This document shows, piece after piece, positions 21,881-64,000 of a stretch of 64,000 nucleotides of DNA; the first letter of the stretch is position 1, and every line of letters starts with the position of its first letter. Both the position numbers and the translations under genes were made by a program. The stretch covers positions 107,360 through 171,359 of the forward strand of contig JAERTG010000100.1 of NCBI GenBank assembly GCA_016845065.1, written 5' to 3'. Below the pieces are notes generated by a model. It had not been told where the DNA came from, did not search any database, and saw only the letters and a program-made list of their open reading frames with translations. This stretch comes from Fidelibacterota bacterium (GTDB taxonomy: Bacteria; Fidelibacterota; UBA8477; JABMPR01).

Positions 21881-21888
21881 TTATTATC

Positions 21889-47604: not shown

Positions 47605-48663
47605 TTAATCGTTCCACTCCGCTTTGAAAATATGTGTGGCTCTGGGATTATCTGCGTCACGATTAGAAGCAAATGCCATATATTTTCCATCTGGGCTAAA
47701 CATGGGAAAACTATCAAAATATGTATTGTTGGTGAGTCTTTTTAGACCCGTACCATCAATCGCCACCATGTATAATTCAAAATTATGACCGAAGGCACCT
47801 GCCTCTTCATTCCAGTCATCCATATTGGATGAGAAAACAACATGCTTCCCATCAGGATGCCAGGACGGTGCCCAGTTAGTGGCTCCATTGTCCGTCAATC
47901 GTACTTTGTTCTGACCATCGACATCCATTGTATAAATTGATAAAGGTACAGCCTCAACCTGGTTCAGAGCCATATTTTCCTGCCATCGTAAGGTATCTTC
48001 AGCATTTTCAGGATACCAGGCACGCCAGACTATCTTTTTTGCATCAGGGCTAAAATAAGGTCCTCCATCGTAACCAAGGTGATTTGTGACTCGTTGGACA
48101 TCTGATCCATCCATATTCATTGTGAACAATTCGAGGTCATTGTCAATTTCAGAGGTGAAGATTACCCTGCCTGTTAGAAAGGAAACGGTTGGCTCAGCGT
48201 CATAGCCAGCATTCTCCCTGATTCGTACCAGATCAGTTCCATCTGGATTGGCTGAATAGATATCATAGGGAAATAGTGGCCAGAGGTATTTATTGCCCTG
48301 GGGCCTGGGTCTGGGTGGGCAACTGTCCACGATACCAAAGGTAGACGCAAAAATTATTCTGTCCTTCTCCATGCTATAGTAGGAACAAGTATTTGCACCA
48401 AGCTCGGGACTCACCATATGCTGATCACTGCCGTCTGCATTCATGACATAGATTTTATCACAACCATTCCCATCGCGCTTGCTCTGAAAGATAATCTGCT
48501 GACCGTAAGGTCCCCAATATGCTTCTCCATTGTCACCCTTGAAGGTCAATTGCTCTACGTTGGAAAGCCCAAATGGCTTTTCCTCAACAACGAGTTCCTG
48601 CTGTGTGGTACAGCTAATCATTGCCACACTCAGCACCAATAATACGCTAAACTTTATTTTCAA
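47605..48663 (-). CDS. TolB-like periplasmic/lipoprotein with PD40 (WD40-like) beta-propeller repeats
   Basis: Lipobox-like signal (AMISCTT). Repeated PD40-type blocks (YWGPYGQQIIFQSKRDGN, YSANPDGTDLVRI, FSPDAKKIVW, WHPDGKHVVFSSN, FSPDGKYMAFASNRD). Confidence 0.7.
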   Translation of the reverse strand: MKIKFSVLLVLSVAMISCTTQQELVVEEKPFGLSNVEQLTFKGDNGEAYWGPYGQQIIFQSKRDGNGCDKIYVMNADGSDQHMVSPELGANTCSYYSMEKDRIIFASTFGIVDSCPPRPRPQGNKYLWPLFPYDIYSANPDGTDLVRIRENAGYDAEPTVSFLTGRVIFTSEIDNDLELFTMNMDGSDVQRVTNHLGYDGGPYFSPDAKKIVWRAWYPENAEDTLRWQENMALNQVEAVPLSIYTMDVDGQNKVRLTDNGATNWAPSWHPDGKHVVFSSNMDDWNEEAGAFGHNFELYMVAIDGTGLKRLTNNTYFDSFPMFSPDGKYMAFASNRDADNPRATHIFKAEWND

Positions 48664-48704
48664 TTTACACTCCTGATTTTGTTTTTTTGTGAATCTGAAA
48701 AAAC

Positions 48705-49892
48705 CTATTTCTCTTCCAATTCAACACGATACAAAAGAACAGCATTGTGAATATGAATTGCAAATAGATCTTTTCCAATTTGAGATAATTTTGGTAATGT
48801 AGTTGTCCAGCTCCCAAATGAGCTGCGATGGGCGATCTGTCCCGTTTTACTCACACCTTCCAGCTCGAAATTTCGGTAGGCCTGTACCCCACTCTCAGTA
48901 AAAAAAGGTTCATAACGTATATAGAGGAACAAACCCCAGTTGGCGAGATAGTCAGCATCACTGATGGTAGATAAATCAATGGGGTGGTAACTTGAAATAA
49001 GCGAACCGTCTCCAAGATTAACAACATTCAAGTCTTTTTCGGAGACAACAAATGCCATCTCTCGTCCAAGTGAACTAATCTCCCAGGTCTTCCAGGGGAA
49101 CTGGGCCATGATTCGTTCTCTATTAAATAGAGTCAGGTTCGACTCAAAACCGTCATGAATCTCCAGAAAGTAATAATCTGTGCCTGGCACAGGTTCAAGA
49201 CCAACAAGTCGTCCCGGGACACTTACAGGGTTCGTCAGCAATTTGTCATGATTCCAGAGGTGAATATCGACAATTGACATGGAGTCGGGCTCGTCGGGCA
49301 TTAGGCAAGAGGAAGCCGTAATGAATTCATTCCGGTTAATCAACTTTGCCATCCTGAGATTTATTCCACATTTATCTTGATCACCGGGCACTACATTCTC
49401 CAAATAGAGTAGCGTGTCCTCATTGCCCAGCTCGAGAATCCAGGGTTGATCTTCCTGTGTGAGTAGAATCGTACCGTGAGTCGTGAGCTTTGAATTGAGT
49501 TTTCCCTCGCCCAAAGGGACACCATGAACCAGTGTGTAGTCTGGATTACCCTGATAATCATAGACCTGAAATGAGTAGAGTCTCTGGGGATTAAATGCAT
49601 CGATTGACTCGTTCTCCTGAATCAACACAAAGCTGGAAAGATCCTGATTTACTTTGAACTTATCATTTGGTGTGCGGTGGATTTGGATGACATGGTTGCC
49701 AAGACTGTCATAATAGGAAATCTGATTCTCGGTGATGGTATACATGATGGGAAAACCATTGGTGTTTGACCTGAATATGACCTCTTCAAGAGGGGTGTCA
49801 AATGTCCATTGGGCATATGGCTCAATATGCAAGACATCAGCTCTAGCAAGTTGTAGCAAAGTTAAAAAAAATACGAGATACCTAATTATCAC
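48705..49892 (-). CDS. Secreted hypothetical protein (395 aa)
   Basis: N-terminal signal peptide. No recognisable domain. Lies in the T9SS-linked operon. Confidence 0.5.
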   Translation of the reverse strand: MIIRYLVFFLTLLQLARADVLHIEPYAQWTFDTPLEEVIFRSNTNGFPIMYTITENQISYYDSLGNHVIQIHRTPNDKFKVNQDLSSFVLIQENESIDAFNPQRLYSFQVYDYQGNPDYTLVHGVPLGEGKLNSKLTTHGTILLTQEDQPWILELGNEDTLLYLENVVPGDQDKCGINLRMAKLINRNEFITASSCLMPDEPDSMSIVDIHLWNHDKLLTNPVSVPGRLVGLEPVPGTDYYFLEIHDGFESNLTLFNRERIMAQFPWKTWEISSLGREMAFVVSEKDLNVVNLGDGSLISSYHPIDLSTISDADYLANWGLFLYIRYEPFFTESGVQAYRNFELEGVSKTGQIAHRSSFGSWTTTLPKLSQIGKDLFAIHIHNAVLLYRVELEEK

Positions 49893-49899
49893 GGCTCAC

Positions 49900-52041
49900 C
49901 TATTTAAGCAAAACTATTTTTTGTGTCTTACTGTGTGCTTCGCCTTGAAGCAGCTGTACAAAATAAGCGCCGCTAGGGAGACTTATCCCATTATTATTTT
50001 TTGCATTCCAGGTCCAATGATAACTTCCAGGTATATCACTCCCCAATTTTGCATCAACCACCTGACTACCACTGATATCATAAATGAGTATTCTAGCACC
50101 AGAGTGCTGATTCAAATGGTACTCAATATTGACTGAAGCGTTAAATGGGTTCGGATATATTCTAGATATGGACATTTGTTGCGGCACTTGAGTATCTCTC
50201 AGGTCACTGGTTCCATCGAAGTACTGGAGGACACGGCCAACCAGCTCAGCGCGTTGAGTCTCTGTGTCAATGGTTTCGAAGGCCAAACCCATGACAAACG
50301 TTCCTGAGCTATTATCCAGAAAGCTCACTGCTGCATTCAAGCCATTCCCATATTGAAGGGCTATTTCTCCATTTGATGATACACCAAAATGATCAGGCCA
50401 ATCCTCTTCATAGGGACTGGTTCCATAATTAAAACTGATATCAGAAAAGTGAGGACCTACACCATTCACGGAGGGGTGATTACCATCATCACCCAGGTAG
50501 GTTATGTGCAAGGTTTCGTTCAAAAAAGCAATATCACTAGGAGATCCAACACTGAGATCATAGCCAATCTCTGCTCCAGACGCAAACAAGTAGCCACCTC
50601 CACCCAGATATTCAGAAATTACATTTTGCTCAGATGAGCTAAATGTTTCAGATGTTCTGCTATCATCCCCTAGAAACCAGAATACTGATGAGTAATCTTC
50701 GAGACTCTGAGCTTCTGTCACCCATTCATTGCTAGCCGATGCTATTGCGGCATCTGAACCGCTATTCACAATTGCTTCCGAATAGTATGTTGCGAAATCA
50801 TGTTGGATCGAGGTCCATGAACCATTTGTGCGATCAAAACCATCTACTATGAGAATTGTAGGTTGGGCGGCACTAAGACGTGCCCCATATGTGTCTGAAT
50901 ACCCACTACGATTCGGAATGGGTGCAGTATCCACTGCCAATAATCGAAATTGGATATATGAGTTTTCCGGAAATTCTTCTACCGTAAAACTAGTCAAATT
51001 CGAAGTGAGAATATCCGGCCCGTGATTCGAACTCCAGGTTGTTCCATTAAAAGAGAATTCCAGAATGTATCCACCAAGATCAGGATCATTCGGGCCTTCC
51101 CATTCCAGATATAACTGACCATCTGCGTTGGGTCCTACATAGGTGAAGTTGGGTTGACCGGGTGGAAGTAAGTCAACATCACTGAGTTGAACACGGACAT
51201 AGGTCGTATCCCAATTGTCGCGAGTATCTGAGCTCATGACAGATATGACATAGGGACCTGGTTCATAAATTGTACAGTCGAGATAGTCATTTGCTGTGAT
51301 TCGATTGGTGACAATATATCTGTATATACTCGTACTGGAGCCAGGCGCATAAACTCGGTTGATGTTTGAATTGGAATACAGCTCATCAGCTTCGAACCAA
51401 AAATGTGGTCCACGTAAAACTTCAGACGTGTCTGATGAGTGTAATGCCCATCCAATAGTGTAGATGCCGTTGTTCATATCAATACTGGACCATAGATCTG
51501 TTGTGTCAGCTGCCTGTGCGATAATATCCACATGTCCGCTGAGTGTTACTCCAGGAAAAGCTGCAGAGCTACCATCTCTAACAAATTGAATGATTGGAGA
51601 CCGGGGATGATAGGGATCCACAAAAGGTGTGAGTTTCCCCGGTAAAAGTGGGTTACCGGTGGGGTGTCCGCTTGCACCACCCCCATAGTTAAGATGAATA
51701 TGAGCATAACTGTCTGTATGACCCACCACTGCTCCCTGAGCGACGGTATTTCCTACTTGAAGTCCTGCCAGAGGAATTACATGGACATAGGCAAAATCTT
51801 CGACACGAATCCAATCCGACCCAATACCAGTCACGGTGCCAGCCATGATGCTCAGGGCATTTTCACCAGGAGCTAAGGGCATATCGGTACCATTGTGAAA
51901 ATGGTCCCTGTCTTCTCGGCATTCATCAAATGTAGCAGATATGCGATGTTGTTGATCCATGGGTGCCATGGGCCATGGGAAGTTGTTTATCTGAGCCATA
52001 AGACTCAGAGGCAGCAGAATAAGAAGAGTTTTAAGTGGCAT
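49900..52041 (-). CDS. Secreted M23/LytM-family metallopeptidase with FN3-like domain and canonical T9SS C-terminal sorting domain
   Basis: M23 motifs (HNGTDMP...AG and AHIHLNYG). FN3-like block (PPGQPNFTYVGPNADGQLYLEWEGPNDPDLGGY). C-terminal domain of about 85 aa (IYPNPFNASVNIEY...GAYFVQLL...KIVLLK) matches the T9SS type-A CTD pattern. Confidence 0.8.
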   Translation of the reverse strand: MPLKTLLILLPLSLMAQINNFPWPMAPMDQQHRISATFDECREDRDHFHNGTDMPLAPGENALSIMAGTVTGIGSDWIRVEDFAYVHVIPLAGLQVGNTVAQGAVVGHTDSYAHIHLNYGGGASGHPTGNPLLPGKLTPFVDPYHPRSPIIQFVRDGSSAAFPGVTLSGHVDIIAQAADTTDLWSSIDMNNGIYTIGWALHSSDTSEVLRGPHFWFEADELYSNSNINRVYAPGSSTSIYRYIVTNRITANDYLDCTIYEPGPYVISVMSSDTRDNWDTTYVRVQLSDVDLLPPGQPNFTYVGPNADGQLYLEWEGPNDPDLGGYILEFSFNGTTWSSNHGPDILTSNLTSFTVEEFPENSYIQFRLLAVDTAPIPNRSGYSDTYGARLSAAQPTILIVDGFDRTNGSWTSIQHDFATYYSEAIVNSGSDAAIASASNEWVTEAQSLEDYSSVFWFLGDDSRTSETFSSSEQNVISEYLGGGGYLFASGAEIGYDLSVGSPSDIAFLNETLHITYLGDDGNHPSVNGVGPHFSDISFNYGTSPYEEDWPDHFGVSSNGEIALQYGNGLNAAVSFLDNSSGTFVMGLAFETIDTETQRAELVGRVLQYFDGTSDLRDTQVPQQMSISRIYPNPFNASVNIEYHLNQHSGARILIYDISGSQVVDAKLGSDIPGSYHWTWNAKNNNGISLPSGAYFVQLLQGEAHSKTQKIVLLK

Positions 52042-53213
52042 TACCGGCTTATCTCAAGCCATTCATAGTTCGTTCCTATGAAGAATCGGTCACCATCATT
52101 TTGAACTTGAAATAGTTTGGGAAAACGGGGATCGATTTGTACATCGGTGTTTTCTAGAGACTGAGGAAAAAAGATTTGTGCGAAGTGTGTATTTCTTTTG
52201 GCAAAGAAATCTGCGGCAACACGAATGATTGCTACCTCACCGCGGTTGTTAACTGACAATCCTAAACAAATGCGATTATTGTTGTCAAATCTAATTTTTT
52301 CAACTCGTTTGAAGTTCAGATCAAACAGCTGAATGTATTCATGACTGCTAAGGACTGCGAGATAGCGGCCATTGGCAGATAATTTAAGCTCATGACCATA
52401 ATTCTCATTATTCCAGAGCATCTTCCCATCACTGGTAAGTTCAACAATCATGGGTTTCATTTCCTGATCAACTGCGGAATAATCGTAGCCACTGACGAAG
52501 AAGCGTTGATTTTGAAAAACCAATTTCTGCAAATAGGTAAATGGTAAATAAGCAGTTTTCTGTTCACGACCGTTGCTGTTTATGCGAATAAACAGAGATT
52601 TTCCAGCTGGACCACCATTAAATCCAGGTCGTTCAAGTAATATGTAGCATTGATCCCCAATCCACTGCAAGAGAACATTGCGCTCCATACTCATCTCCCC
52701 ATCATCTTCATACAACTGTCCTTCTGAGATGAGGTTACCAGATTCATAGAACCAGATCAAAGCCTTTACTGGATCCACGAGGGCGAGGATGCCCTTATCA
52801 GATATTGCAGATACCAGCGGTTTGAGATCTGCATCAGAACCTCGATTTACTGTATAAAGCAATTCGGAGTGATCATCCAACACGAAATAGTCTGAATACC
52901 GTTTGTTGTTTTTTATTTCACCCAAATCCTGGAGGCGTGAAACAAGTCGATACTCCCCATTTGGTGAGAGGGTAATTGTGGATTCTGGATCATAAGCAGA
53001 TATTCTTCTAATCGATTGATTATCAATGGAATACTTAGCACTACTTGAAGTATAATATAGTGGACGTCCATCCACCGATACCCATGAAATAGCGGCATCA
53101 TCGACTTCAATAATTTGATCTATCTGGAATGCAGATACCCCCCCGGATAGCATTATCAACAGAGCTAATAAAGACGCATTGCTAATTTTCATTGGCTTCC
53201 TTCTCTCCTTCAA
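52041..53213 (-). CDS. Secreted hypothetical protein (390 aa)
   Basis: Signal peptide (LLALLIMLSGGVSA). No recognisable domain. Stop overlaps the M23 gene start by 1 nt. Confidence 0.5.
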   Translation of the reverse strand: MKERRKPMKISNASLLALLIMLSGGVSAFQIDQIIEVDDAAISWVSVDGRPLYYTSSSAKYSIDNQSIRRISAYDPESTITLSPNGEYRLVSRLQDLGEIKNNKRYSDYFVLDDHSELLYTVNRGSDADLKPLVSAISDKGILALVDPVKALIWFYESGNLISEGQLYEDDGEMSMERNVLLQWIGDQCYILLERPGFNGGPAGKSLFIRINSNGREQKTAYLPFTYLQKLVFQNQRFFVSGYDYSAVDQEMKPMIVELTSDGKMLWNNENYGHELKLSANGRYLAVLSSHEYIQLFDLNFKRVEKIRFDNNNRICLGLSVNNRGEVAIIRVAADFFAKRNTHFAQIFFPQSLENTDVQIDPRFPKLFQVQNDGDRFFIGTNYEWLEISR

Positions 53214-53243: not shown

Positions 53244-54284
53244 TTAAAATTCCAAACTTATACTAAAGCGACGAGTATCATTCAATATTCCCCAATCACC
53301 ATAGGCAAGATCCAGTTTAAAACGAAGGTTGCGGGCGATAAGAAAATTTACACCTCCCCCAACATTAAACCCTTCTGGAGAAAGGGTGTTACCATCTTCA
53401 TCCACATCATCAAGATAGAATGTCTGACCAGCTCTGAGGAAAGCCAAATCCATTAGATTGAATTCTCCACCAATACTAACACTCTCAGAATAGTTGTTGG
53501 GATGAGCAGCATCTACAGCCAGTGTGAGCTTACCGTGACGTATTTTCACTACATCTGCCGCCAAACCAACCCTGAAAGTTAGAGGAAGTGACCAGTAGTC
53601 TGTGTCGAGGTGGGCATTGATGCGGGAATTGTTACCTTCCTGATCGGGAGCAACATCAACCTCGATCAGTGTGTCATCCCCCTTCAACTGCATTTTACCA
53701 CCGAAGTTTGACACGCTCATGCCAACTCTCAGGTCTCTGAACTGAGTTTTGAAGGTGGTTCCGAGATCCACAGCTACTGAGCTGGCTTTCATATGCCAGA
53801 TACGTTCCTCAATATATTTCACATTAGCGCCGAAAGTAAATCGATCCGTAAACTTTCTGCCCCATCCTAGGGTTGCCGATAGATCAGTAGCTCCGAAGCG
53901 TTCTCCAGTACCATCTGGTTGGTCAATCGTGGTGACATCCATTTCTTCAATGGAGATACTGGTCAGGGCTACACCAACAGTACCCAAATTACCCATGGGG
54001 AAGGCAGCTGATACATTGTTAAAACTAATACCTGCCAGCCAATTGGTCTGGATAAAACTCACTTCGCTCTTATTCATCAGAGCCAAGCCACCTGGATTCC
54101 AGTACAATGAATGGACATCATCAACTACAGCAACATACGCATTACCCATAGAAGTACCCCGAGCTCCGATTCCAATTTCCAGGAATGACGCAGCTGTGGT
54201 ACCCCGTTTTGAGACAGCCTGTGTGGTTGTGACCAATAATAGGAAGATGATTGCGATACGAATGGAGTTTCTTGATAGTTTCAT
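53244..54284 (-). CDS. PorV/PorQ-family (FadL-like) outer-membrane beta-barrel protein, copy B
   Basis: After the signal peptide: GTTAASFLEIGIGARGTSMGNAYVAVVDDVHSLYWNPGGLA, the conserved N-terminal block of T9SS PorV/PorQ-type proteins. Beta-barrel-like alternating pattern and a C-terminal aromatic (F). Paralogous to 62569..63615. Starts 9 nt after the stop of the giant CTD protein. Confidence 0.6.
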   Translation of the reverse strand: MKLSRNSIRIAIIFLLLVTTTQAVSKRGTTAASFLEIGIGARGTSMGNAYVAVVDDVHSLYWNPGGLALMNKSEVSFIQTNWLAGISFNNVSAAFPMGNLGTVGVALTSISIEEMDVTTIDQPDGTGERFGATDLSATLGWGRKFTDRFTFGANVKYIEERIWHMKASSVAVDLGTTFKTQFRDLRVGMSVSNFGGKMQLKGDDTLIEVDVAPDQEGNNSRINAHLDTDYWSLPLTFRVGLAADVVKIRHGKLTLAVDAAHPNNYSESVSIGGEFNLMDLAFLRAGQTFYLDDVDEDGNTLSPEGFNVGGGVNFLIARNLRFKLDLAYGDWGILNDTRRFSISLEF

Positions 54285-54293
54285 GTCAACCTC

Positions 54294-57200
54294 CTACTTA
54301 ATCACTGCAAATTTGCTGACATGATTACCAATTCCAGGTGCTTCTACGTGGTATAGATACACGCCATAGGCAATCTCCAATCCATCTCTAGACAGGAGAT
54401 TCCAGGATTCAGCACCATCCCATATTTCAGCATTATGATTGATGGAATTCACAAACTTTCCACTCAGGGTATAAATACTGATCGTACATTCCGGAGGCAA
54501 ATTGATGAAGTCTATCTTGCGCACTCCCCGTCCAGAATCATAAAGATGCTGTGGTTCCCAGGAGGCTGTTACCACATAAGGATTTGGTACCACTGAGATA
54601 TCCTCCAGAAGGCTTGAGGGAGCGTTCACATCGATATCACCACCTGTGGCAGAGAAGGTCAGCACATCATGAGCAGAGAAGGGTTTTCTCGACTTGACGA
54701 TGAATTGATCACCAGGTTCTGGAGCCCAGTTATCCCATACACCATCCTTCAATCTTGCTACTGAATTTTCAGTACCAATCCAAATCGCTCCATCGTCAGT
54801 TTGATTTATGCACTGAAGAAGGTTAGTGCCAAATGCGGCTACATCATCCTTGGTATAGGCAGAGTAGACGGTATCAACACCATTGAAGTCAATTACGTTG
54901 TAACCTTTTTTGGTAACAAGATGGACTTTTCCATCTGAGGCAACTATGAGATCATTCACTTTTCTATCTAGTATGCTATCTTTATTTGCATAGGTAACAC
55001 TATCCAGGGCAAAGTTGTAGATTACCAACCCTTTGTCCTTAGTACCAATAAATAGTTCGGCCTGGTTGGTAGCGAGGGAAATAATTTTATCAGTTGGTAG
55101 GTTAGAATTAGTCTTGTTTAAATACCAGAAGCTAGTATTGGATGGTTGGTAAAACTCAATTCCTTCTGATTGGGTACCGACAACAATAGTTCCATCATCC
55201 AGAGAAATCAATTCTGTGGATGCATTTTGTAATACACCTGTCATTACTGAGTCTCCACTAATGGTATTGAACTCCCCATTATTGAAATTGACAGAGGTGA
55301 TTGCATTTACACCCCAAATCTCTCCTATTTGAGTCTGGTGCCAATCCCATCGAAAGATCCCTTTTGATGAAATGGACCATAAAATGCCATTTTTGTCCTC
55401 CAAAACTCTATGAAATTGGAGATATTCATTCTTCACACCTTCAGAATTATCAGCATCAACTACAAGATCAATTTGGTAATTCTGCCAACCATATTGATTG
55501 TGAACACTCAATCCTCCCGTGGATCCCACCATTATGTTGCCAGAAATATTATAAGATATATCCAAAACATTGTTGGTAAGTAGACCCGCATCATCTTTTA
55601 TGTTACCCCAGGTTTCTCCATCATATAAACCAAGGCCCTGACTTGCAGTGGCAAAAACAGTAAAGTCATCCCATTGAGCAATACGATTCACATTACCAAC
55701 CTTGGACTGACTCACCATTTTCCAGGTCACACGATCTTCGCCACCAGCTAAAATGGTGGGATAAATCACAGAACCAGGTCTGAGGGTCGTATCCGACAGA
55801 GTCTGAGCTATTAATCGCACTGGAAGATCATTGGTGAGATCTCTCATGCTGAATGCCATCCGTTTGTTCAGATAGATAGATGTATCAGTAACTGTCGGAT
55901 TGATGGTCAATTGATAATCAAAGGGAACTAATTTGAGGTCAACGTTATTATGTCGTTCCGGATAGAGATTGATTTCATAGTTCAAACCGGTTCTCATCCA
56001 CCCAGTTTCCTGTTCATTCAATGCAATCACATCATTGGTAACATTTATCTTGAATCCCTCTGTGACCATACCTCGTCCCTCTCCTGAAAAGTTGGTCTGG
56101 TCTGAAAGTAATACATTACCAGTGGTCAAGTTTGTAAGCTGATAAGAGCTTGTGTGGCGCGGAACCTCATCAACATCATTGGCATCAAAATGAGGCTCAC
56201 CTGCATCTGGCATGGCGTTGGCCTGTGTTCCGTTTGGATTTGTCAACTCGTTCCAATTGTCCTGGTTGGGATCACCACCCAGATTTAGCTCCGTTTCAGA
56301 GCAGGGATTCAATGGATCCCCTGTTTCAAATGCATCATTACAGCCATCAGATCCAAGATCATCATAGATTTCTTCCCACCCATCCCATAAACCCAATGTT
56401 GGATACAGTGTGAAGGTCGTATCTGGAATCTCCACAAAATATTGGAGGTAAGTCGAATCGTCCACAGTCACGGTCTGCGTGTCAACGAATGAGGTGATAA
56501 AATTGAACCCGTTAAAAATAAAATTAGTCGTACTCTCGGTAATCCCCTGAAAGAGATGAGCCCCGGGAAGTGTAAATATCAGGGTATCAGAATTTGGGGG
56601 GATCATCATCTCCAGCGTACTATTCAGAGTAATAGTAGTTGAGTCATCAGTCCAGGTGCGCCAATCACCATCATTGTCGATACCATCTTCAGACCAATCC
56701 CTGAATGTGATCTGGTATTGATCCATATTTCTGATTTTGGATGGATCAACCACTTCAATTTCCAGTGATCCTGTTCCCAGCGTTGTGGCTGCATCAGCTA
56801 CAATTTCAGGTGGTAAATATGCCATTGCAGGTGCGTTTGGCACTGCAACACCAGTATTGATACCGAATTTTACGGGAATTCCAGAAGCATTGATCTCTAT
56901 CTTCTTGGTACACTCAGAAGGTGTAATGGGTGGTCTCAGTTCAATTTCAGAAATCCCGCGATCATAAAAATCATAGTCGAACCCATAATCATAGGCTACA
57001 ACTGCGTAATAATATGTTTGCCCGTTGTTAACCGTCGTATCTGTCCAGGAGTGCCTTATACCAGTATCAGTACCCATATCCAGGTGAATACCGTTCAGAC
57101 CATATGGATGTGGACCTACCAGGCCATCTGCCTTGTCAAATTGAGCAATGGGCTTGTTAAAGGTCTGATTGCCATAAGTATCCGTAATATTCCAGACCTC

Positions 57201-59096
57201 ATTGAAGGCTGGGTCAGTAGCACGATATATGCGATAGCCCTCAAAATCATTTCCATAGATGGGATCCAGACTGTATTCGGCCTTATCATCCCAATATAGG
57301 GTGACCTGCCCATCTCCAGGAACCACGGTGAGTTTTGGGAGGTTTGGTGGTTTAGCAAAATTATAGTCACTATTGTAAATCTGCTGCATGGTCTCAGAAT
57401 TACGCAAGATATCCTCATAATCATTTCCGAATATGAGTGCTACAGCAAATTTTCGTTCCTCTTGCTGGGGAAGCTCAAAGTAGGCTGATCCATACATGAA
57501 GGTTAGATCAACAGTTTGGGAAATATCTGTAAAAGACCCTGGTGATAGTTGTTCCCAGGCATTTGCATCACGGGTAAGATCAATACCCGGGTATGGACCG
57601 GCTGTAAAACTTGTGAGACCAATCTGGTCAGATTCATCATTATCTGTGTATTCAAAATTTGGCTCACCTGGATCGGGTACGCCATTTCCTTCGGTTCCAT
57701 CTGCATCAGGACCTAGATATTCACCGAAATTCGGTCCAACACCATCAGAACCTGTATCATCCACATAGGGGTCCCAATCACCATCATTGTCAATCCCATC
57801 ATCTTGACTTTCGTCAATCATTCCGTCTTCATCATTATCACGACTATCCAGGGGGTTTCCTGGTGATTCGAGATATTTCCAACCAAAATATGCTGGAACA
57901 TATCCACCATCATTTACGGTCCAAAGGTCATGATCCCACTGATAAACAATGTCATTTACGGTATCAAACCAGGCATCATCATCCCGTTGATCTCCATCAT
58001 CACCAACATCAGCATCCCCATACATGCCAAAGATGAATTTTTGATAATCCCAGGAACTGATATTCTGGATCCAGTAGGTAAAAATCAAAATATCTTCTGC
58101 AGCTGGATGTGCCCATTGATAACCTCTTGCAGAGACATCTACACCGAGACCTCTTTTAAGACCATCATAGATGTAATAGTCCATATCCTGATCTGAAGTG
58201 TTGGCACGACCAGCAAACGTTTTGATCAGGATTTGGTTATCGTTTATAATTTCTTCGATTTCATACCACTTATCATCAAGAACCCGAACTACATCCGGGC
58301 GTCGTCCATCTCTTGGATCAATTGCGTCTGATCGAGCAACATCCCGTACCAGACCATCAAATGTGGTATTCATATCCGTAAGGATAGCATAATCATTGGA
58401 GTCAGAATTGGCCAATTGAACAATACTTCCAGAATGAAGCACAGTATCTACCAGGATGGGATAGTGTTTAAATTCATCATTGTTAAAGTCATCCATGTGG
58501 AAGTAGCTTTCCTGATCTGCGCGACTGTACTGACCGTACTGACCGGCCCATCTGTTATCCCATTCAGAGGAAAGGTTTGCCCAACTATCGGGCCATGAAA
58601 GACTATCGTCACTCATTGCTATGAGTGAATCATTTGTATTCGCATATCCCAGTCTCGGTTCAAACTGCCAGAGATAGTCATCTGATGTTGGCTTGTCGAT
58701 GGAGCTTGAGGGCATTCCCTCACTGACAATATGCAGTGGAGCACCGTTGGCATTTGGGGTTTCTGCAGCCACGAGTGGTGAGAATTCTGCAAGGTATGAA
58801 CGTCCGCTACCAATAGGATAGATACCACAATCATATCTTCCTGGTGAGTTTCTCCAATCCGCGATGGATCCATAATTTGTGAATCTCGTGAGAATTTTAT
58901 TGCCATTGTGTACACCAAGCCTGCGATTACCATGTCCATTGGCGTCAGTACCCAGGGTACCCACTTTTCTCAATATATTTGGTTTGGGATGAATGTTTTT
59001 ATCTGAGCTCGCTGCTTCCAGGACAAAGGGAACTGCCAGGAAGACCACCATCAGTATTATAGTCTTATTGATTTTCATTGCTAGCCCTTGACTCAT
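54294..59096 (-). CDS. Giant secreted T9SS cargo protein (1600 aa): Asp-rich Ca-binding repeats, FN3-like domain, Cys-bracketed D-rich module, Reg_prop-type beta-propeller repeats, variant C-terminal sorting domain
   Basis: Signal peptide. TSP3-like DxDxDG repeats (DNDEDGMIDESQDDGIDNDGDWDP...) at about aa 360-495. FN3-like block at about aa 585-705. A GSDGCND...PCSETELNLGGDPNQDNWNELTNPNG module at about aa 905-980. Two-component-regulator-propeller-like repeats at about aa 1140-1490. C-terminal domain VVPNPYVVTASWEP...ISIYTLSGKFV...AYGVYLYHVE...KFAVIK. Confidence 0.8.
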   Translation of the reverse strand: MSQGLAMKINKTIILMVVFLAVPFVLEAASSDKNIHPKPNILRKVGTLGTDANGHGNRRLGVHNGNKILTRFTNYGSIADWRNSPGRYDCGIYPIGSGRSYLAEFSPLVAAETPNANGAPLHIVSEGMPSSSIDKPTSDDYLWQFEPRLGYANTNDSLIAMSDDSLSWPDSWANLSSEWDNRWAGQYGQYSRADQESYFHMDDFNNDEFKHYPILVDTVLHSGSIVQLANSDSNDYAILTDMNTTFDGLVRDVARSDAIDPRDGRRPDVVRVLDDKWYEIEEIINDNQILIKTFAGRANTSDQDMDYYIYDGLKRGLGVDVSARGYQWAHPAAEDILIFTYWIQNISSWDYQKFIFGMYGDADVGDDGDQRDDDAWFDTVNDIVYQWDHDLWTVNDGGYVPAYFGWKYLESPGNPLDSRDNDEDGMIDESQDDGIDNDGDWDPYVDDTGSDGVGPNFGEYLGPDADGTEGNGVPDPGEPNFEYTDNDESDQIGLTSFTAGPYPGIDLTRDANAWEQLSPGSFTDISQTVDLTFMYGSAYFELPQQEERKFAVALIFGNDYEDILRNSETMQQIYNSDYNFAKPPNLPKLTVVPGDGQVTLYWDDKAEYSLDPIYGNDFEGYRIYRATDPAFNEVWNITDTYGNQTFNKPIAQFDKADGLVGPHPYGLNGIHLDMGTDTGIRHSWTDTTVNNGQTYYYAVVAYDYGFDYDFYDRGISEIELRPPITPSECTKKIEINASGIPVKFGINTGVAVPNAPAMAYLPPEIVADAATTLGTGSLEIEVVDPSKIRNMDQYQITFRDWSEDGIDNDGDWRTWTDDSTTITLNSTLEMMIPPNSDTLIFTLPGAHLFQGITESTTNFIFNGFNFITSFVDTQTVTVDDSTYLQYFVEIPDTTFTLYPTLGLWDGWEEIYDDLGSDGCNDAFETGDPLNPCSETELNLGGDPNQDNWNELTNPNGTQANAMPDAGEPHFDANDVDEVPRHTSSYQLTNLTTGNVLLSDQTNFSGEGRGMVTEGFKINVTNDVIALNEQETGWMRTGLNYEINLYPERHNNVDLKLVPFDYQLTINPTVTDTSIYLNKRMAFSMRDLTNDLPVRLIAQTLSDTTLRPGSVIYPTILAGGEDRVTWKMVSQSKVGNVNRIAQWDDFTVFATASQGLGLYDGETWGNIKDDAGLLTNNVLDISYNISGNIMVGSTGGLSVHNQYGWQNYQIDLVVDADNSEGVKNEYLQFHRVLEDKNGILWSISSKGIFRWDWHQTQIGEIWGVNAITSVNFNNGEFNTISGDSVMTGVLQNASTELISLDDGTIVVGTQSEGIEFYQPSNTSFWYLNKTNSNLPTDKIISLATNQAELFIGTKDKGLVIYNFALDSVTYANKDSILDRKVNDLIVASDGKVHLVTKKGYNVIDFNGVDTVYSAYTKDDVAAFGTNLLQCINQTDDGAIWIGTENSVARLKDGVWDNWAPEPGDQFIVKSRKPFSAHDVLTFSATGGDIDVNAPSSLLEDISVVPNPYVVTASWEPQHLYDSGRGVRKIDFINLPPECTISIYTLSGKFVNSINHNAEIWDGAESWNLLSRDGLEIAYGVYLYHVEAPGIGNHVSKFAVIK

Positions 59097-62000
59097 ATTG
59101 AAGTTGAGAAACCGATTCGAATCTGTCTAGGAGACGAATAGTAGCTCGGTCTGTTTAAATATTCTTCAATCGTATTGTAATTCCAGCCAGGATCCTGGGT
59201 AGTATAGGTTGGAATAAGTGAATACCCAGAGCGACCTGTATCCGAATAAACAGAGACTTCGTTTCTTATATCGAGAAGGTTATAAACATTGGCCGTAAAT
59301 CCTATTTCTCGACCTAGCAGCATAAACTTCTTGGAGATTCTCATATCTACGTTGATTTGGGTTGGTCGACGACCGCTGTTCTCGAAGCTACCTCCCACCA
59401 GATTCAATGAAGTCGGGGTATAAGGTAATCCAGATCCATACTCACCAATGAAACTGAGGTTGACCTTATATGGTAGTTTAAACAAAACAGAGCCATTGAG
59501 TGTGTGCCGTTGATCCCAATCCAGATAGACTAATTGCTTCTCTGTATCACGATTATTCTGAGCATCCCAAAATGCAGATCTTGGGTCAGAGGCATTACCT
59601 TCAGCTACACTGTAGGTATAGTCCAGGTTAGCTGAAAATCCTTGTGAGAGTCTTTTTGTCAAGGAAACGGTAATTCCCTTTACGTTTCCATAATCACGGT
59701 TGACATAAACTCCATATACCTCATTAGTGTAGGTCGTGACAATCTTTGAACCCAATAAATTACTGATATCCTTGTAGAATCCAGTTACATCTACACCTAT
59801 ATCCTCTCCAAACTGCTGCTGAAACCCAACCTCGTACTGGACGGTCTTTTGAGGTTCCAGGTCTGCATTACCCATAGTAGCAGAAGCAATGCTCCCTCCT
59901 GCCGGCACTTCGAAATCAGGATTTATATAGAGATAGGTATAACTCGGTATTTGGAAGAAGTGGCCATAGGAGAAGTGCAAGACACCCTTATCGGTGATTG
60001 GATAGGCCATGGCCAGTCGAGGACTGAATTGTACCTTCTTGGAAGCCTCCTTGAACCAGTACTCCATGCGATCTTCCAGAGTTTTTGCGTTAGTATCAAC
60101 CGCTTCATCCTCTGAAATCTGACCATTCCCGTCTATATCATGAAATCTGTTAACCAATTTAAGGGGTGATTTCGGATTAGGATCTGATGGATCCGAAGGT
60201 GTCACACCATCTGGATCAAATATTTCGTATCTCAACCCTGCATTCACTATCATATCCACAACTTCGATCTTATCCTGGAGATAAACTGCAAACTCAGAAG
60301 GATTCTTGACCATCTCACTATATGTTGGTGTTGTGGGGCTTACATCGGGTGTAAGAATTTGCGGTGTGAAATATCCTTCGGCTGGATCGTAAATGATGGA
60401 AAAGTCCCTTCGAAAGATGCTGGTGTATTTGTATTCAAGACCACCTTGCAGCTGATGCATTTTATTTATCTGGTTGGTCATATCAAATTTGATCAATTGA
60501 CTACGTGTCATCCGATACAGGTGGTATTTAGAGATACCACCCAGGTTGAATTTCTGACCGACTGAGGCATCAAGAATATTGTTGTCATTCTCATAGTCCT
60601 CAAGATTGTTGGAATCATAAGCAGTATCTGCAGGCATATCAAAATCGGAGATATTGAACATGTTCGACATAAATATCTGATTCCAATTGACATCATAAAT
60701 GGGTTCATAATAGGATCGACCCAAATTCCCAAGAATTGACGCCTTGACACTATAGAAGGCCTCGGGGCTGAGTGTATGTTGTAGAACAAGACCTATATTC
60801 ATATTGGTCCCATAAGAAGTCGCTCGTCCCTCGGGCGTATATTTCCAGTTTAGCGAACTACTGTTGTAAGTTTCTGAACTTCCGTAAAGAACATTGAGAG
60901 AGAGTTTTAATTGTTGTGTGAAGCGATGTGTAAGTTTTCCCTGAAGGTTAAGACTCTTTGAGTTATATAGTGGCACTACGGCGTTGTCACCGCGCATATT
61001 CGTCCATTCCCCGTCCTGGTCCCCATCTATGTACCATTCACCACTCAAAGCGCCATTGCCATCCAGATCTTCGTAGGTTACCTCAGGAAAACCAACATCT
61101 GTATCGACGTCTGAATCCCATTCTCCATTGCCATTGTTATCTCGATACCAGGTGCCAGTGGCATTATCGAGGAATACATCTGGGTCGATGGGATAAACAC
61201 GATCACCACCATCCCATAGACCGTTTCCTGATTCACCACCATCTCTGATGTTATTGCCTTCTCCACCATTGGGATTGAGATAGAAGTCCCAATTATCTCC
61301 ATTGGGATCATCACCCAGGTTTAAGGGTACACTGGAGCAGCCTCCTGTTCCATTTTCATATTCATCGGGACAACCATCCTCACCATAATCGATATAATCA
61401 GAGAAATATTCACCATTTTCAATGGGCATGGAATTGGTGTTATCCCAGTAAAAAGAATCAGTATTAAATCGTCGCACACCATATAGACGACCAGCCAGAT
61501 CTTCATACCTGCCTGAAGTAAAAAATGATGTCGTCTTTGCCAGTCCAGGCACCGGTCCACTCATACTCCACTGGAAATCATGTCTACCCTGGGGCGTAAA
61601 GACATCAGGATTGGTTCCAAAAATGTCTACTTTAGAAATGTCGAGATCATCTTTTAAAGCCAGATCTCCAGGAATAATACCAAGATATATTTCAGGATCT
61701 GGAGATATATAGCGACCATAGCGATAGCTCAGTTCACCGGAATAATCACTCAAACTTCCATCCTTGGTGATGATATTGATAATACCTGACATGGCCTGGC
61801 CATATTCAGCGTTGAATGTTCCTGAAATAACCTGTAGTTCCTGGATGGCATTGTTTTCAATACCAACACCCATATTCTGACCGTAGGAGTTTGTGACTGG
61901 GATACCATCAATCAGGTAAGCAACTTCAGAGGATCGTCCACCGCGGATATGAATTGCCCCAGAGCCATCGACAACCACACCAGCTTGCAATGAGACAGCA

Positions 62001-62440
62001 GCCTGGAATGATTCAACGGGTAATGCTTCTAGCTCTGCCGAACTAATGTTGGACTGGGCATGTGTAATATCAGCTTGTATCATGGACCGATCCGCTGTAA
62101 CAGTAACCACATCTCCCTCGATAATACTGAGTGTCATCTGGACATCCTGGGTCGTGGTCAAATCAACCATGATGCGGATACCATCAATCACTTGTTCTGA
62201 ATAGCCAATCATGGAACAGCGAAGTTGATACTCACCAGGGGCGATATTCAGGATATAGAAATTACCGTCCATATCCGTCGCTCCACCCTGACCGGTAGCC
62301 GGCAAGAATACATTTACTCCAATTAGGGCCTCACCTGTACTTAGATCGGTAACCCGACCTGTCAATTTTCCTGCAGTTCCTGAGAACAGAAATTGAGCCC
62401 CAATCAATAGAATTAGAGATATACGACATAGATTTTTCAT
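59093..62440 (-). CDS. TonB-dependent-receptor-like outer-membrane protein (CarboxypepD_reg domain, plug and barrel) with a large Asp-rich insertion
   Basis: N-terminal carboxypeptidase-regulatory-like domain (GKLTGRVTDLSTGEALIGVNVFL...DGNFYILNIAPGEYQL), TonB-box/plug region (VVTVTADR...IDGIPV) and a beta-barrel-like C-terminal body. Insertion at about aa 350-480 (GEDGCPDEYENGTGGCSSVPLNLGDDPNGDNWDFYLNPNG...). ATGA overlap with the downstream giant cargo gene. Confidence 0.75.
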   Translation of the reverse strand: MKNLCRISLILLIGAQFLFSGTAGKLTGRVTDLSTGEALIGVNVFLPATGQGGATDMDGNFYILNIAPGEYQLRCSMIGYSEQVIDGIRIMVDLTTTQDVQMTLSIIEGDVVTVTADRSMIQADITHAQSNISSAELEALPVESFQAAVSLQAGVVVDGSGAIHIRGGRSSEVAYLIDGIPVTNSYGQNMGVGIENNAIQELQVISGTFNAEYGQAMSGIINIITKDGSLSDYSGELSYRYGRYISPDPEIYLGIIPGDLALKDDLDISKVDIFGTNPDVFTPQGRHDFQWSMSGPVPGLAKTTSFFTSGRYEDLAGRLYGVRRFNTDSFYWDNTNSMPIENGEYFSDYIDYGEDGCPDEYENGTGGCSSVPLNLGDDPNGDNWDFYLNPNGGEGNNIRDGGESGNGLWDGGDRVYPIDPDVFLDNATGTWYRDNNGNGEWDSDVDTDVGFPEVTYEDLDGNGALSGEWYIDGDQDGEWTNMRGDNAVVPLYNSKSLNLQGKLTHRFTQQLKLSLNVLYGSSETYNSSSLNWKYTPEGRATSYGTNMNIGLVLQHTLSPEAFYSVKASILGNLGRSYYEPIYDVNWNQIFMSNMFNISDFDMPADTAYDSNNLEDYENDNNILDASVGQKFNLGGISKYHLYRMTRSQLIKFDMTNQINKMHQLQGGLEYKYTSIFRRDFSIIYDPAEGYFTPQILTPDVSPTTPTYSEMVKNPSEFAVYLQDKIEVVDMIVNAGLRYEIFDPDGVTPSDPSDPNPKSPLKLVNRFHDIDGNGQISEDEAVDTNAKTLEDRMEYWFKEASKKVQFSPRLAMAYPITDKGVLHFSYGHFFQIPSYTYLYINPDFEVPAGGSIASATMGNADLEPQKTVQYEVGFQQQFGEDIGVDVTGFYKDISNLLGSKIVTTYTNEVYGVYVNRDYGNVKGITVSLTKRLSQGFSANLDYTYSVAEGNASDPRSAFWDAQNNRDTEKQLVYLDWDQRHTLNGSVLFKLPYKVNLSFIGEYGSGLPYTPTSLNLVGGSFENSGRRPTQINVDMRISKKFMLLGREIGFTANVYNLLDIRNEVSVYSDTGRSGYSLIPTYTTQDPGWNYNTIEEYLNRPSYYSSPRQIRIGFSTSI

Positions 62441-62474
62441 ACTAGTCTCGCCTTAGTTGTTACTGTTAGCAGCG

Positions 62475-62502
62475 TATATAAATAATTAAGGCACCTCTTC
62501 AA
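62475..62502 (-). promoter_or_regulatory. Candidate sigma70-like promoter for the TBDR-cargo operon (TTGAAG - 16 nt - TATATA)
   Basis: On the minus strand the -35-like TTGAAG maps to plus 62497-62502 and the -10-like TATATA to plus 62475-62480, about 35 nt upstream of the ATG at 62440. Weak evidence. Confidence 0.25.
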
Positions 62503-62568
62503 TATCCGCGGATACCTAAAAGATGCCTTGACTACTACTTACCTATAGTGAGGTAATCCCCTTAGGCA

Positions 62569-63615
62569 TTAAAAATACAAGCTTAGATTAAATCTTTGGA
62601 CATTGTTCAGACGCCCAAAATCAGCATAAGCATAGTCAAATCGTAATCCTGAGGCAGATCCAAATATGGGCAGATCAAATCCTGCTCCGAATGTGAAACC
62701 TTCCTCGCGAGCTTCAAGGTCAGAGGCTGCAAGACTGGTGTTGGTCTCAACAAAGGGTGATTTCCAACCCCCTCTTAGAAAGTATTTATCCAATATATTG
62801 AGCTCAGTACCGATATTGATTGATTCATAATTGTCATTTGGATGAATAGCATCTACTGCCAATGTCAATTTGGTAACGCCAACTTCAATCACATCCATGG
62901 CAACACCCACACGAAAGATGAGTGGTAAATCCCAGTCATCCAGTGCATAATCAACTGGAATAGCATCATTATTGCCTTCAAAGCCAGGTGCGGGGTCATA
63001 ACGTTCCAGAATATCCCGGCCGGACATCCTTAAACTCGATCCATAATTGGATATACTCATTCCGAGACGCATATCATTGAACTGGGTCCTGAACAGGGTA
63101 CCTACATCTACAGCCATAGCGCTAGCCCGGCTATGCCAGATGGTCTGCTGTATATATTTACCATTAAATCCAATCGAAAAACGATCTGTGAGTGATCTTG
63201 CCAGAGTTACCTGAAGCGCTAAATCGCTGGCAGTAAATTCCTCACCGGTTCCGTTGGGTTCCAGTTCAGTTGTCACAGGCATATCATCCATTGTTAAGGA
63301 GGTAACACTCAGACCAACAGTACCAATCCCATATAGAGGAAAAATAACACCCATGTAGTTGATGGCCACATCAGCAATCCAATTGTTCCGAAGGAACATG
63401 ATCTCGCCACCACCAGCCTGAGCAATACCAGCTGGGTTCCAATAGAGTCCTGAAGCATCGCGGCTCATGGCGACATATGCCTCACCCATACCAGTAGCTC
63501 GGCTACCAATACCTATTTTGAGAAATTGTGCTGCAGTCGTACCACCCTTGTATTGTCCAAAGCTCATTGAAACAGCGATTACAAGGAGCATGATCATTTT
63601 CTTCTGCATGGTCAA
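62569..63615 (-). CDS. PorV/PorQ-family (FadL-like) outer-membrane beta-barrel protein, copy A
   Basis: After the signal peptide: GGTTAAQFLKIGIGSRATGMGEAYVAMSRDASGLYWNPAGIA, plus a C-terminal FNLSLYF. Paralogous to 53244..54284 at roughly 40-45% identity by eye. Starts 5 nt after the stop of the upstream partial giant-protein gene. Confidence 0.6.
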   Translation of the reverse strand: MTMQKKMIMLLVIAVSMSFGQYKGGTTAAQFLKIGIGSRATGMGEAYVAMSRDASGLYWNPAGIAQAGGGEIMFLRNNWIADVAINYMGVIFPLYGIGTVGLSVTSLTMDDMPVTTELEPNGTGEEFTASDLALQVTLARSLTDRFSIGFNGKYIQQTIWHSRASAMAVDVGTLFRTQFNDMRLGMSISNYGSSLRMSGRDILERYDPAPGFEGNNDAIPVDYALDDWDLPLIFRVGVAMDVIEVGVTKLTLAVDAIHPNDNYESINIGTELNILDKYFLRGGWKSPFVETNTSLAASDLEAREEGFTFGAGFDLPIFGSASGLRFDYAYADFGRLNNVQRFNLSLYF

Positions 63616-63620
63616 TCTCC

Positions 63621-64000
63621 TTATTTAATCACGGCAAATTTGCCGATGGTTTCTGCGTTATCGGTTTCAACGTGATATATGTAAACACCATAGGCAACCT
63701 CCAGGTTATCCAGGTTCAATAGGTCCCAGGATTGAGCACCGTTATAGACAGACTCATGGTGTTCCAATTTTCTAACCAACTCGCCAGCCATGGTATAAAT
63801 CCGGATTGTACAGTCTGTGGGGAGGTTGATAAAATAGATCTTACGTTCTCCTCGTCCTGACTGCAAATATGGCTTTTGTTCCCAGATGGCGGCTGCCACA
63901 TAGGGATTTGGCACGACGGAAACTTTGTGAAGCTCGTTGGCAACTTTTTCAGCATCTTCTTTTGCAGCTGTGGTCTCATATCTGTAGACATCCCGGGAGC
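63621..64000 (-). CDS. C-terminal end of a second giant T9SS cargo protein (partial; continues beyond window)
   Basis: The reading frame is open to the window edge (...EDAEKVANELHKVSVVPNPYVAAAIWEQKPYLQSGRGERKIYFINLPTDCTIRIYTMAGELV...AYGVYIYHVE...KFAVIK). This C-terminal domain is clearly homologous to the CTD of the 1600 aa protein (54294..54600). Confidence 0.7.
   Translation of the reverse strand, partial: SRDVYRYETTAAKEDAEKVANELHKVSVVPNPYVAAAIWEQKPYLQSGRGERKIYFINLPTDCTIRIYTMAGELVRKLEHHESVYNGAQSWDLLNLDNLEVAYGVYIYHVETDNAETIGKFAVIK

Follow-up and report, generated by a model that had tools for sequence, protein, structure and literature searches.

Why would a bacterium place a dedicated outer-membrane barrel directly behind each of two large secreted proteins, and what might such proteins be doing at its surface? 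This question is raised by a stretch of 64,000 nucleotides (nt) from a Fidelibacterota bacterium (GenBank assembly GCA_016845065.1, contig JAERTG010000100.1, positions 107,360 to 171,359 of the forward strand), referred to here as the window. An earlier reading made from the letters of the DNA alone had described a tandem duplicated module between positions 53,244 and 64,000, in which a giant cargo protein with a distinctive C-terminal domain (CTD) is followed by its own PorV/PorQ-like barrel. Our analysis supports the pairing but not the number of genes: the outer-membrane cassette comprises three genes, for a TonB-dependent transporter (TBDT), the large protein (here called X) and the barrel, in this order, and it exists in the window as two paralogs that diverged long ago. 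The two units, A and B, are composed as follows:

63621-64000, minus strand: 3′ part of X_A, encoding its C-terminal 125 amino acids (aa) including the PorU/PorZ-like CTD; the gene runs off the window
62569-63609, minus strand: barrel A, PorV/PorQ-family outer-membrane β-barrel, 346 aa from its ATG
62441-62568, minus strand: spacer between units A and B, 128 nt, the sole sizeable gap
59093-62440, minus strand: TonB-dependent transporter B (TBDT B), 1115 aa, between copies A and B
54294-59096, minus strand: X_B (cargo B), 1600 aa, with Sec signal peptide, conserved core, variable middle, propeller and CTD
56697-58985, minus strand: conserved core of X_B (aa 38-800), predicted β-supersandwich with acidic loop insertion, then an FN3-like segment
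54717-55769, minus strand: predicted propeller of X_B (aa ~1110-1460), seven-bladed, Reg_prop-type
54297-54599, minus strand: CTD of X_B (aa ~1500-1600), predicted seven-strand sandwich, type-A-related, PorU/PorZ-like
53244-54284, minus strand: barrel B, PorV/PorQ-family outer-membrane β-barrel, 346 aa

The two barrels do each follow a large protein with a common CTD, all open reading frames (ORFs) concerned lie on the minus strand where the sequence-only reading had placed them, and the CTD and barrel signature motifs that it quoted are legible in the translations. The similarity of the copies is far beyond chance, at 45.5% identity over 345 aa for the barrels (E 2e-103) and 48% over 126 aa for the C-termini of X (E 3e-38). 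The proposed distance of 5-9 nt between cargo and barrel holds for copy B, where the barrel lies 9 nt after the X_B stop codon; in copy A, a gap of 5 nt requires a TTG start at 63615 (62569-63615, 348 aa), whereas an ATG at 63609 lies 11 nt after the X_A stop codon. The ATG is the more likely start because it is preceded by GGAG and is the start used in public assemblies, in which the exact barrel A protein is present. In both copies, this GGAG ribosome-binding site abuts the X stop codon. The last 30 nt of the two cargo genes, described as recognisably conserved, accordingly encode ...GKFAVIK and the stop codon plus the GGAG site, but the TTAY pattern given for them is inexact for copy B, which ends in TAG. 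At the other end of X_B, the stop codon of TBDT B overlaps the start codon (ATGA).

To place this arrangement in a wider context, one genome per GTDB species (185,579 species genomes) was scanned, which returned 397 matching stretches; 80 loci from Marinimicrobia/Fidelibacterota, KSB1, Calditrichota and others were kept. Where these loci had enough flank, a barrel followed the C-terminus of X in 82 of 83 cases and a TBDT preceded its N-terminus in 66 of 67, the two exceptions being a barrel ~580 nt away and a slightly short transporter match, respectively. The pairing of cargo and barrel is thus kept across several phyla, as had been predicted, yet the notion of a two-gene module fails: the TBDT, omitted from it, is as invariant as the barrel. 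Median gaps within the cassette, estimated from the ends of tblastn hits, are negative, which suggests overlapping or abutting genes. Clustering of all neighbouring ORFs left TBDT, X and barrel as the only universal families (70-73 loci). No enzyme or regulator qualified as a fourth conserved neighbour, the next family, with 19 of ~80 loci, being a SAR406-specific CTD protein.

Many of these loci are, like the window, multi-copy. It is common for a locus to have two or three diverged copies, and two units lie within 15 kb of each other in 15 of the 80 loci. TBDT-X-barrel occurs twice in tandem in L004, the closest relative of the window, and in the KSB1 locus L008, but once in the pelagic SAR406 contig L006, where it adjoins a TonB gene and a protein with a type A CTD, the tail typical of type IX secretion system (T9SS) substrates. 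In pelagic SAR406 contigs, the cassette is a single-copy element beside housekeeping genes. The paralogs within two-unit loci must be old, given that their barrels are 35-58% and their tails 52-61% identical. Likewise, barrels A and B are closer to their L004 orthologs (87% and 85% identity, respectively) than to each other (47%), so that the apparent tandem duplication is an ancient paralogy of the whole cassette and not a recent event. When units were matched between genomes, tail and barrel gave the same answer in 32 of 34 informative comparisons, as expected if cargo and barrel are inherited as a pair. Mirror-tree correlations among CTD, barrel and transporter are high (0.80-0.94) but were discounted, since shared phylogeny explains them.

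Do these data speak for a shuttle or anchor pair that serves a large adhesin-like protein, following the logic of SprB-SprF with a PorV-type barrel and with the TBDT as an unrelated neighbour? The adjacency and paired inheritance of cargo and barrel are real, single substrates with type B CTDs are known to have cognate barrels (PMC12618676), and X is large, multi-domain and mostly β. Yet, a TBDT that is as invariant as the barrel and whose gene overlaps X argues against a chance neighbour, the core of X is 55-64% identical across phyla, unlike fast-evolving adhesins, and neither a PorP/SprF barrel nor a type B CTD was matched. Together with the single-copy state of the cassette beside pelagic housekeeping genes, this makes the adhesin interpretation quite unlikely in our view.

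The gene at 59093-62440 can be assigned to the TBDTs by its domains and motif. Its product starts with a signal peptide and a CarboxypepD_reg N-terminal domain, followed by a plug and a large barrel with Asp-rich loop insertions; CarbopepD_reg_2, Plug (41.5 bits, cut-off 23.9) and TonB_dep_Rec_b-barrel (83.4 bits, cut-off 27) all score above their Pfam cut-offs. A TonB-box-like DVVTVTA lies between N-terminal domain and plug, and an equivalent motif, (E/D)x(V/I)(V/T)V(Q/T/V)A(E/D)RP, occupies the same position in 71 relatives. The protein falls far short of the SusC/RagA model TIGR04056 (78.9 bits, cut-off 368), of which only profile positions 2-208 are matched. TBDT B and X_B have an acidic, Cys-containing module of ~57 aa in common (61232-61396 and 56196-56366, the latter aa 911-967 of X_B; 51% identity; consensus roughly DDxGxDGCxDxxExG...PCS...LNLGxDPNxDNW), which sits in a lineage-specific insertion of the transporter barrel and in the variable middle of X, and which recurs in L004 (3300-3461 and 12725-12895). 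It could be a common calcium or ligand site, or a contact module.

The barrels themselves belong to the PorV/PorQ family, as had been proposed, and are not generic FadL proteins: model NF033709 (cut-off 90) gives 202.4 bits for barrel B (profile positions 1-326 of 326) and 203.6 bits for barrel A (1-324 of 326), and barrel B also passes Pfam PorV (27.5 bits, cut-off 27). Neither reaches the equivalog models for PorV proper (NF033710, cut-off 250; barrel B 68.5, barrel A 63.4 bits), PorQ proper (NF033711, cut-off 220; 93.8 and 89.9 bits) or PorV2 (NF052325, cut-off 325; 81.3 bits for each), whose matches are confined to the N-terminal ~190 residues. Identification as a FadL/TodX transporter was rejected, with Pfam PF03349 (Toluene_X) scoring 22.4 bits for barrel B and 11.6 bits for barrel A against a gathering score of 29.7, and so was PorP/SprF, as neither barrel matched TIGR03519 at E <= 0.1 in the NCBIfam scan. 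The BamG model has a weak match to barrel B (E 2e-5, 23.7 bits, cut-off 250).

The tail of X is a homolog of the type A CTD with PorU/PorZ-like character. Both AlphaFold2 (AF2) models of X proteins end in a seven-strand sandwich, and an alignment of 31 tails, including both from the window, contains invariant PNPY, W-E-P, G-R-G-x-R-K, LP, I-x-I-x-T, G, H, W, G-x-Y and a terminal K. Compared with the type A CTD of a 713-aa protein encoded further downstream, PNP, GxY and K-x-x-x-K are kept; specific to the X family is an insertion of ~16 residues after PNPY (SWEPxHxYxSGRGxRK) that was read directly from the sequences. An hhalign comparison of X tails with canonical type A CTDs from the same loci returned a probability of 95% (E 3.7e-8) over the last 64 columns. 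Curated models are less generous: TIGR04183 (cut-off 23) gives X_A 24.3 bits, barely above, and X_B 13.4 to 17.5 bits, below, so that the expected match to this model is marginal for copy A and fails for copy B, and PF18962 (cut-off 27) gives X_A 20.7 bits, again below. A type B CTD was not indicated by TIGR04131, which had no match, or by CHU_C (PF13585; 19.2 and 14.6 bits, cut-off 27).

The X tail is more often matched by the tails of PorZ and PorU, which hit that of X_A with E 2.5e-5 and E 0.0017, respectively. The C-terminal region of PorU matches 29 of the 31 X tails (best E 2.5e-6) and that of PorZ 28 of 31 (best E 3.5e-6), whereas TIGR04183, which models type A CTDs in general, hits 7 of them (E <= 0.01). 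Searching the tail profile against the PDB again placed PorU first (residues 1084-1143), albeit weakly (E 0.055), and Foldseek with the model of a canonical X protein recovered PorZ (E 1.9e-4) and PorU (E 1.4e-3). The resemblance to these tails, which are not cleaved, suggests that the CTD of X is retained as well. In addition, the X CTD is unusually conserved, with 52-64% identity across phyla; a structural interface would be expected to show this, a signal that is discarded would not. This likeness does not extend to the remainder of the protein: neither PorZ (NF052228, cut-off 260) nor the PorU sortase (NF033707, cut-off 420) is an acceptable identity for X, only the last ~70 profile positions being matched with 16-23 bits. 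The full architectures behind these models comprise two propellers and a C25 peptidase, respectively, and no C25 peptidase domain was found in X.

Barrel and tail together bear on a second alternative, in which T9SS plays no part. Here, the barrel would be a channel of the FadL type through which hydrophobic molecules diffuse laterally, or X would reach the surface otherwise, with the CTD-like sandwich as a docking domain only. PorV-family barrels are FadL homologues, and the FadL-like BamG anchors a surface protein without T9SS (PMC12578637); the weak Toluene_X match and the lack of T9SS core genes in the window fit as well. However, the PorV/PorQ model scores ~200 bits where FadL remains below its cut-off at 22 bits, PNP, GxY and KxxxK stand at the extreme C-terminus in all of the best 150 tail matches, and canonical T9SS substrates are encoded alongside. 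We regard this explanation as very improbable.

A homolog search with X_B yielded more than 2445 proteins, all unnamed or 'hypothetical', from metagenome-assembled genomes of Marinimicrobia/Fidelibacterota, KSB1 and others of the Fibrobacteres-Chlorobi-Bacteroidetes (FCB) group. One homolog (P0064) is labelled 'Methanosarcinaceae archaeon', and some loci carry the names 'uncultured Cytophagia', 'Deferribacteres' or 'Bacteroides sp. SM23_62', probably through binning or naming errors in metagenome-assembled genomes. When 1.84 billion cluster representatives were searched with the 125-aa X tail (phmmer, E <= 1e-10), 1041 clusters (50% identity) were found. Among the best 150 matches, the tail match was always the extreme C-terminus, and the proteins longer than ~800 aa mostly measured ~930 to 1600 aa; many shorter ones are taken to be gene fragments. 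The common form of X has ~1100 aa, and the 1600-aa form is that of the window's own lineage, including the X_A ortholog in L004 (1581 aa, with its own 1183-aa TonB receptor upstream). What had appeared as a giant cargo is, at 1600 aa, indeed very long here, but it is a lineage-specific version of a strongly conserved ~1100-aa family, unlike typical variable cargo.

Relative to SAR406 and KSB1 members, X_B is 55-60% identical between residues ~310 and 800 and 55-57% identical in its final ~140 residues. In the core, Asp, Glu, His, Arg, Trp and Tyr are invariant at many positions. Despite this conservation, Pfam and NCBIfam offered no family above cut-off for X_B, canonical members had no Pfam match even at E <= 1, and a profile search of the PDB with the full-length X family returned zero matches. 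According to the predicted models, the N-terminal part adopts a galactose-mutarotase-like supersandwich with acidic loops, a fold typical of carbohydrate-active enzymes, and X is almost entirely β, with no catalytic (α/α)6 or TIM-barrel domain. In X_B, a low-confidence insertion in the supersandwich is rich in Asp (20% of residues 300-500; DNDEDGMIDESQDDGIDNDGDW is one of its motifs); it matched no domain model, but calcium binding is plausible. An FN3-like segment follows, recognised by its sequence pattern and matched by no FN3 model, and then variable sandwich domains. Finally, the model of residues 800-1600 (predicted local distance difference test score, pLDDT, 76.7) contains a confident seven-bladed propeller at ~1110-1460, the fold of which resembles glycan-sensing hybrid two-component domains and PorZ; in sequence, the Reg_prop match is faint (16.6 bits, cut-off 20.4), and the canonical ~1100-aa X lacks the propeller. 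The signal peptide of X_B is of the Sec type without a lipobox cysteine, and nothing marks X as a SusD-like protein, there being no SusD Pfam match and an all-β model.

Could X then be an enzyme, for instance one that processes glycans or other polymers at the surface, still anchored by its barrel and feeding its products to the TBDT? The very high conservation of the core with its many invariant polar and aromatic residues would fit, and the supersandwich is catalytic in aldose epimerases and adjoins the active sites of GH15, GH65 and GH94. Set against this are the absence of a catalytic (α/α)6 or TIM-barrel domain in an almost all-β protein, a core without sequence match in Pfam, NCBIfam or the PDB, and the lack of an identified catalytic motif in X, so that an enzymatic X seems doubtful to us.

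The propeller next to the CTD brings up another possibility, namely that X and its barrel are an analogue of PorZ-PorQ or PorU-PorV and thus part of a secretion or attachment machinery (handling, for example, surface glycans or lipopolysaccharide for the anchoring of CTD proteins), with a TBDT-like barrel that does not import. The X tail resembles the PorU and PorZ tails, the long form combines it with a PorZ-like propeller, and the family, besides its strong conservation, is found almost throughout these phyla. In Porphyromonas and Flavobacterium, porU and porV are adjacent. The PorZ and PorU equivalogs, however, reach X only in its tail and with scores far below 260 and 420 bits, a C25 peptidase domain is missing, the canonical form has no propeller, two or three diverged copies per locus (15 of 80) would be odd for core machinery, and the TonB box is conserved. 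These points render a role in attachment machinery very unlikely.

We favour a different reading, to which we assign a probability of roughly one half: a SusCD-like uptake unit whose surface partner X is delivered by T9SS and anchored by its barrel. TBDT, X and barrel would all cross the inner membrane by Sec. X would then be exported via T9SS, its C-terminal sandwich being recognised as a type-A-like CTD. In contrast to that of ordinary cargo, this CTD would not be removed but would stay on its own cognate barrel, thereby anchoring X in the outer membrane, a step proposed by analogy to PorU on PorV and PorZ on PorQ. Beside or above the TBDT, X would capture a polymeric substrate, most likely a glycan, which the transporter would import using TonB energy. 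The cassette would thus be a functional analogue of SusC-SusD and of surface glycan-binding proteins, with a barrel-anchored T9SS substrate as the partner in place of a lipoprotein.

The anchoring step has precedents. PorU and PorZ are T9SS substrates with uncleaved CTDs, PorU staying on PorV and PorZ on PorQ; PorQ may be a dedicated shuttle for PorZ, and cognate PorV-like barrels may shield CTDs from cleavage (PMC10947112, PMC10202324). Type B substrates have PorP/SprF barrels of their own, the genes for which follow immediately (PMC12618676). Reserving one barrel for one CTD protein thus follows a known principle. The supposition of the sequence-only reading that a single PorV shuttles all CTD cargo was too strong, as it leaves PorU-PorV and PorZ-PorQ out of account, and the arrangement is in principle less novel than that reading had suggested. 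Circumstantial support comes from the overlapping or abutting junctions, the TonB gene beside the SAR406 cassette and the type A CTD proteins in the same loci. That these genomes encode T9SS substrates is also seen in the window, where the 713-aa protein with a canonical type A CTD probably belongs to the same operon, and many type A (Por-type) CTD proteins and TonB receptors have been reported in SAR406 bins (PMC5596340).

Several observations weigh against the uptake unit and account for our reserve. Within the 64-kb window, none of the T9SS core genes (gldKLMN, sprA), canonical porV or porU was seen, for which reason T9SS dependence is something that we infer, and copy B fails the curated type A cut-off. 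The core of X, at 55-64% identity, is better conserved than both the TBDT (~42-48%) and the barrel (~40-50%), which is unusual for a nutrient-binding protein and may indicate an enzymatic or cell-envelope role. Its canonical model is of moderate confidence (pLDDT 67.8), and neither the supersandwich nor the propeller fold is specific to glycan binding. Neither glycoside hydrolases nor other catabolic genes are among the conserved neighbours in ~80 loci, and no Rfam riboswitch or other known RNA that might hint at the ligand was found upstream of the TBDT in the window or in 7 related loci.

A bolder version of the uptake unit can be put forward as a tentative proposal. The cassette would encode a single outer-membrane machine on which Marinimicrobia, KSB1, Calditrichota and their allied phyla mainly rely to take up polymers. 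X would serve the TBDT as a T9SS-substrate lid or antenna on a private PorQ-like barrel, and the SGRGxRK loop of the CTD would set the specificity of the pair. Possibly, the uncleaved CTD would lock X in place, giving a SusCD-type 'pedal bin' assembled from secretion-system parts rather than lipoproteins.

In the dark ocean, Marinimicrobia (SAR406) rank with the most abundant bacteria, and they have barely been cultured. The cassette is widespread in them and in allied phyla, often in multiple copies, although Pfam has no domain for the ~1100-aa protein at its centre. If the favoured reading is true, it shows how FCB-group bacteria outside the Bacteroidota could provide TBDTs with surface capture proteins without lipoproteins of the SusD kind, and the idea that a CTD protein is protected and anchored by a PorV-like barrel of its own then reaches beyond the two machinery components PorU and PorZ, to working surface proteins as a large class. 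Structural studies and the interpretation of ocean metaproteomes would also gain a defined set of three proteins as a target that can be tested. We found no description of the triad, of the X family or of a PorV-like barrel beside a TonB receptor in the open-access full-text literature. What appears to be new here is the genetic union of a CTD protein/private-barrel pair with a TBDT, and the X family itself; the private barrel as a principle was already known.

Downstream of barrel B, unit B is followed by further genes and then by a hairpin:

47605-53192, minus strand: four downstream genes with short or overlapping junctions
52041-53192, minus strand: protein of 383 aa without known family, downstream of barrel B
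49900-52041, minus strand: M23-like protein with canonical type A CTD, 713 aa (orf713)
48705-49892, minus strand: protein of 395 aa without known family
47605-48663, minus strand: PD40 propeller protein (PD40 94.5 bits)
47533-47571, minus strand: hairpin and T-run (GGTGTCTCAC...GTGAGATACC, then TTTTTT), read by eye from the sequence

These four genes are probably co-transcribed with the unit, lineage-specific and outside the conserved core; they occur in the same order in L004 but, CTD-only similarity aside, are kept in only 2 of ~80 loci. The hairpin with its T-run is a probable intrinsic terminator that closes the unit B transcript, although it is absent from the output of a consensus terminator scan; a promoter/terminator scan of the window did not rise above shuffled background. 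As the likely promoter region for unit B, we infer the 128-nt spacer at 62441-62568.

The 713-aa protein has M23-peptidase-like motifs near its N-terminus (HFHNGTD and HIH; Pfam M23 at only E 0.018) and ends in a textbook type A T9SS CTD (TIGR04183, 38.3 bits, cut-off 23), which means that the transcript of the cassette in this lineage probably also encodes a conventional T9SS substrate. The secreted proteins on either side of it (52041-53192 and 48705-49892, ~385-395 aa) have no family match and are kept with the cassette only in L004. In L006, L010 and ~19 other SAR406 loci, a type A CTD protein of ~690 aa with FlgD_ig and a faint Reelin-subrepeat match ends ~70 nt before the TBDT gene; the TonB gene that adjoins in L006 is on the other strand. 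Genes for Amidase_2, NamZ exo-MurNAc-ase and SLT/LysM transglycosylase adjoin the tandem cassettes of L008 on the opposite strand (15040-23345). Their proximity may be due to chance; for the sole Fidelibacterota strain in culture, however, a life on exogenous muropeptides has been reported (PMC11652737).

Elsewhere in the window, three features unrelated to the cassette deserve mention. A bacterial small signal recognition particle (SRP) RNA at 18262-18357 on the minus strand (50 bits, gathering score 40) overlaps the 5′ end of the dnaX ORF (16418-18361), so that the true dnaX start must be further downstream. The ORF at 39017-39970 on the minus strand fuses RNase HII (aa 7-184) to a UPF0102/YraN-like domain (aa 206-298), the genes for which are usually separate but adjacent. 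Lastly, a 955-aa protein (23952-26819, minus strand) joins an N-terminal RNase_T-type exonuclease to a DinG-like helicase (DEAD, Helicase_C_2).

Returning to the cassette, which known systems does it resemble? Among the closest are PorZ-PorQ and PorU-PorV of Porphyromonas gingivalis, in which a CTD surface protein sits, with its CTD uncleaved, on a dedicated barrel of the PorV/PorQ family (PMC10947112, PMC10202324). The X tail matches their tail regions, and in the long form, a Reg_prop propeller like that of PorZ immediately precedes the CTD. Unlike PorZ and PorU, X fails the equivalog models, has no C25 peptidase domain and is built around a supersandwich core without a Pfam family; likewise, the barrels fail the PorV and PorQ equivalogs, and the pair is genetically tied to a TBDT, multi-copy and found outside the Bacteroidota. 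SprB-SprF and other type B/PorP-like pairs of Flavobacterium johnsoniae have in common with the cassette a private barrel gene directly downstream of the substrate and a specific pairing (PMC12618676, PMC9143113). They differ in that the barrel here is of the PorV/PorQ family with no match to TIGR03519, the tail is type A-related with no match to TIGR04131, and a TBDT is part of the unit.

With SusC-SusD, RagA-RagB and the surface glycan-binding proteins of Bacteroidota, the cassette has in common a large TBDT with a CarboxypepD_reg-type extension that adjoins the gene of a surface partner, the two probably being made together, and partner folds associated with carbohydrates. However, the TBDT fails the SusC/RagA model and matches only its N-terminal part, and X, which has neither the TPR fold nor the lipobox of SusD, carries a Sec signal and a CTD, so that anchoring would be left to a separate barrel. 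The likeness to BamG-BamH of the Bacteroidota BAM complex includes the weak BamG match of barrel B, which is far below the cut-off; BamH is a lipoprotein, and no link to BamA was found here. As for the periplasmic sensor domains of hybrid two-component systems in Bacteroides (such as BT4663, PDB 4a2l), the similarity in sequence is faint, and X_B differs in having one propeller only, placed in a secreted CTD protein rather than in a membrane sensor kinase.

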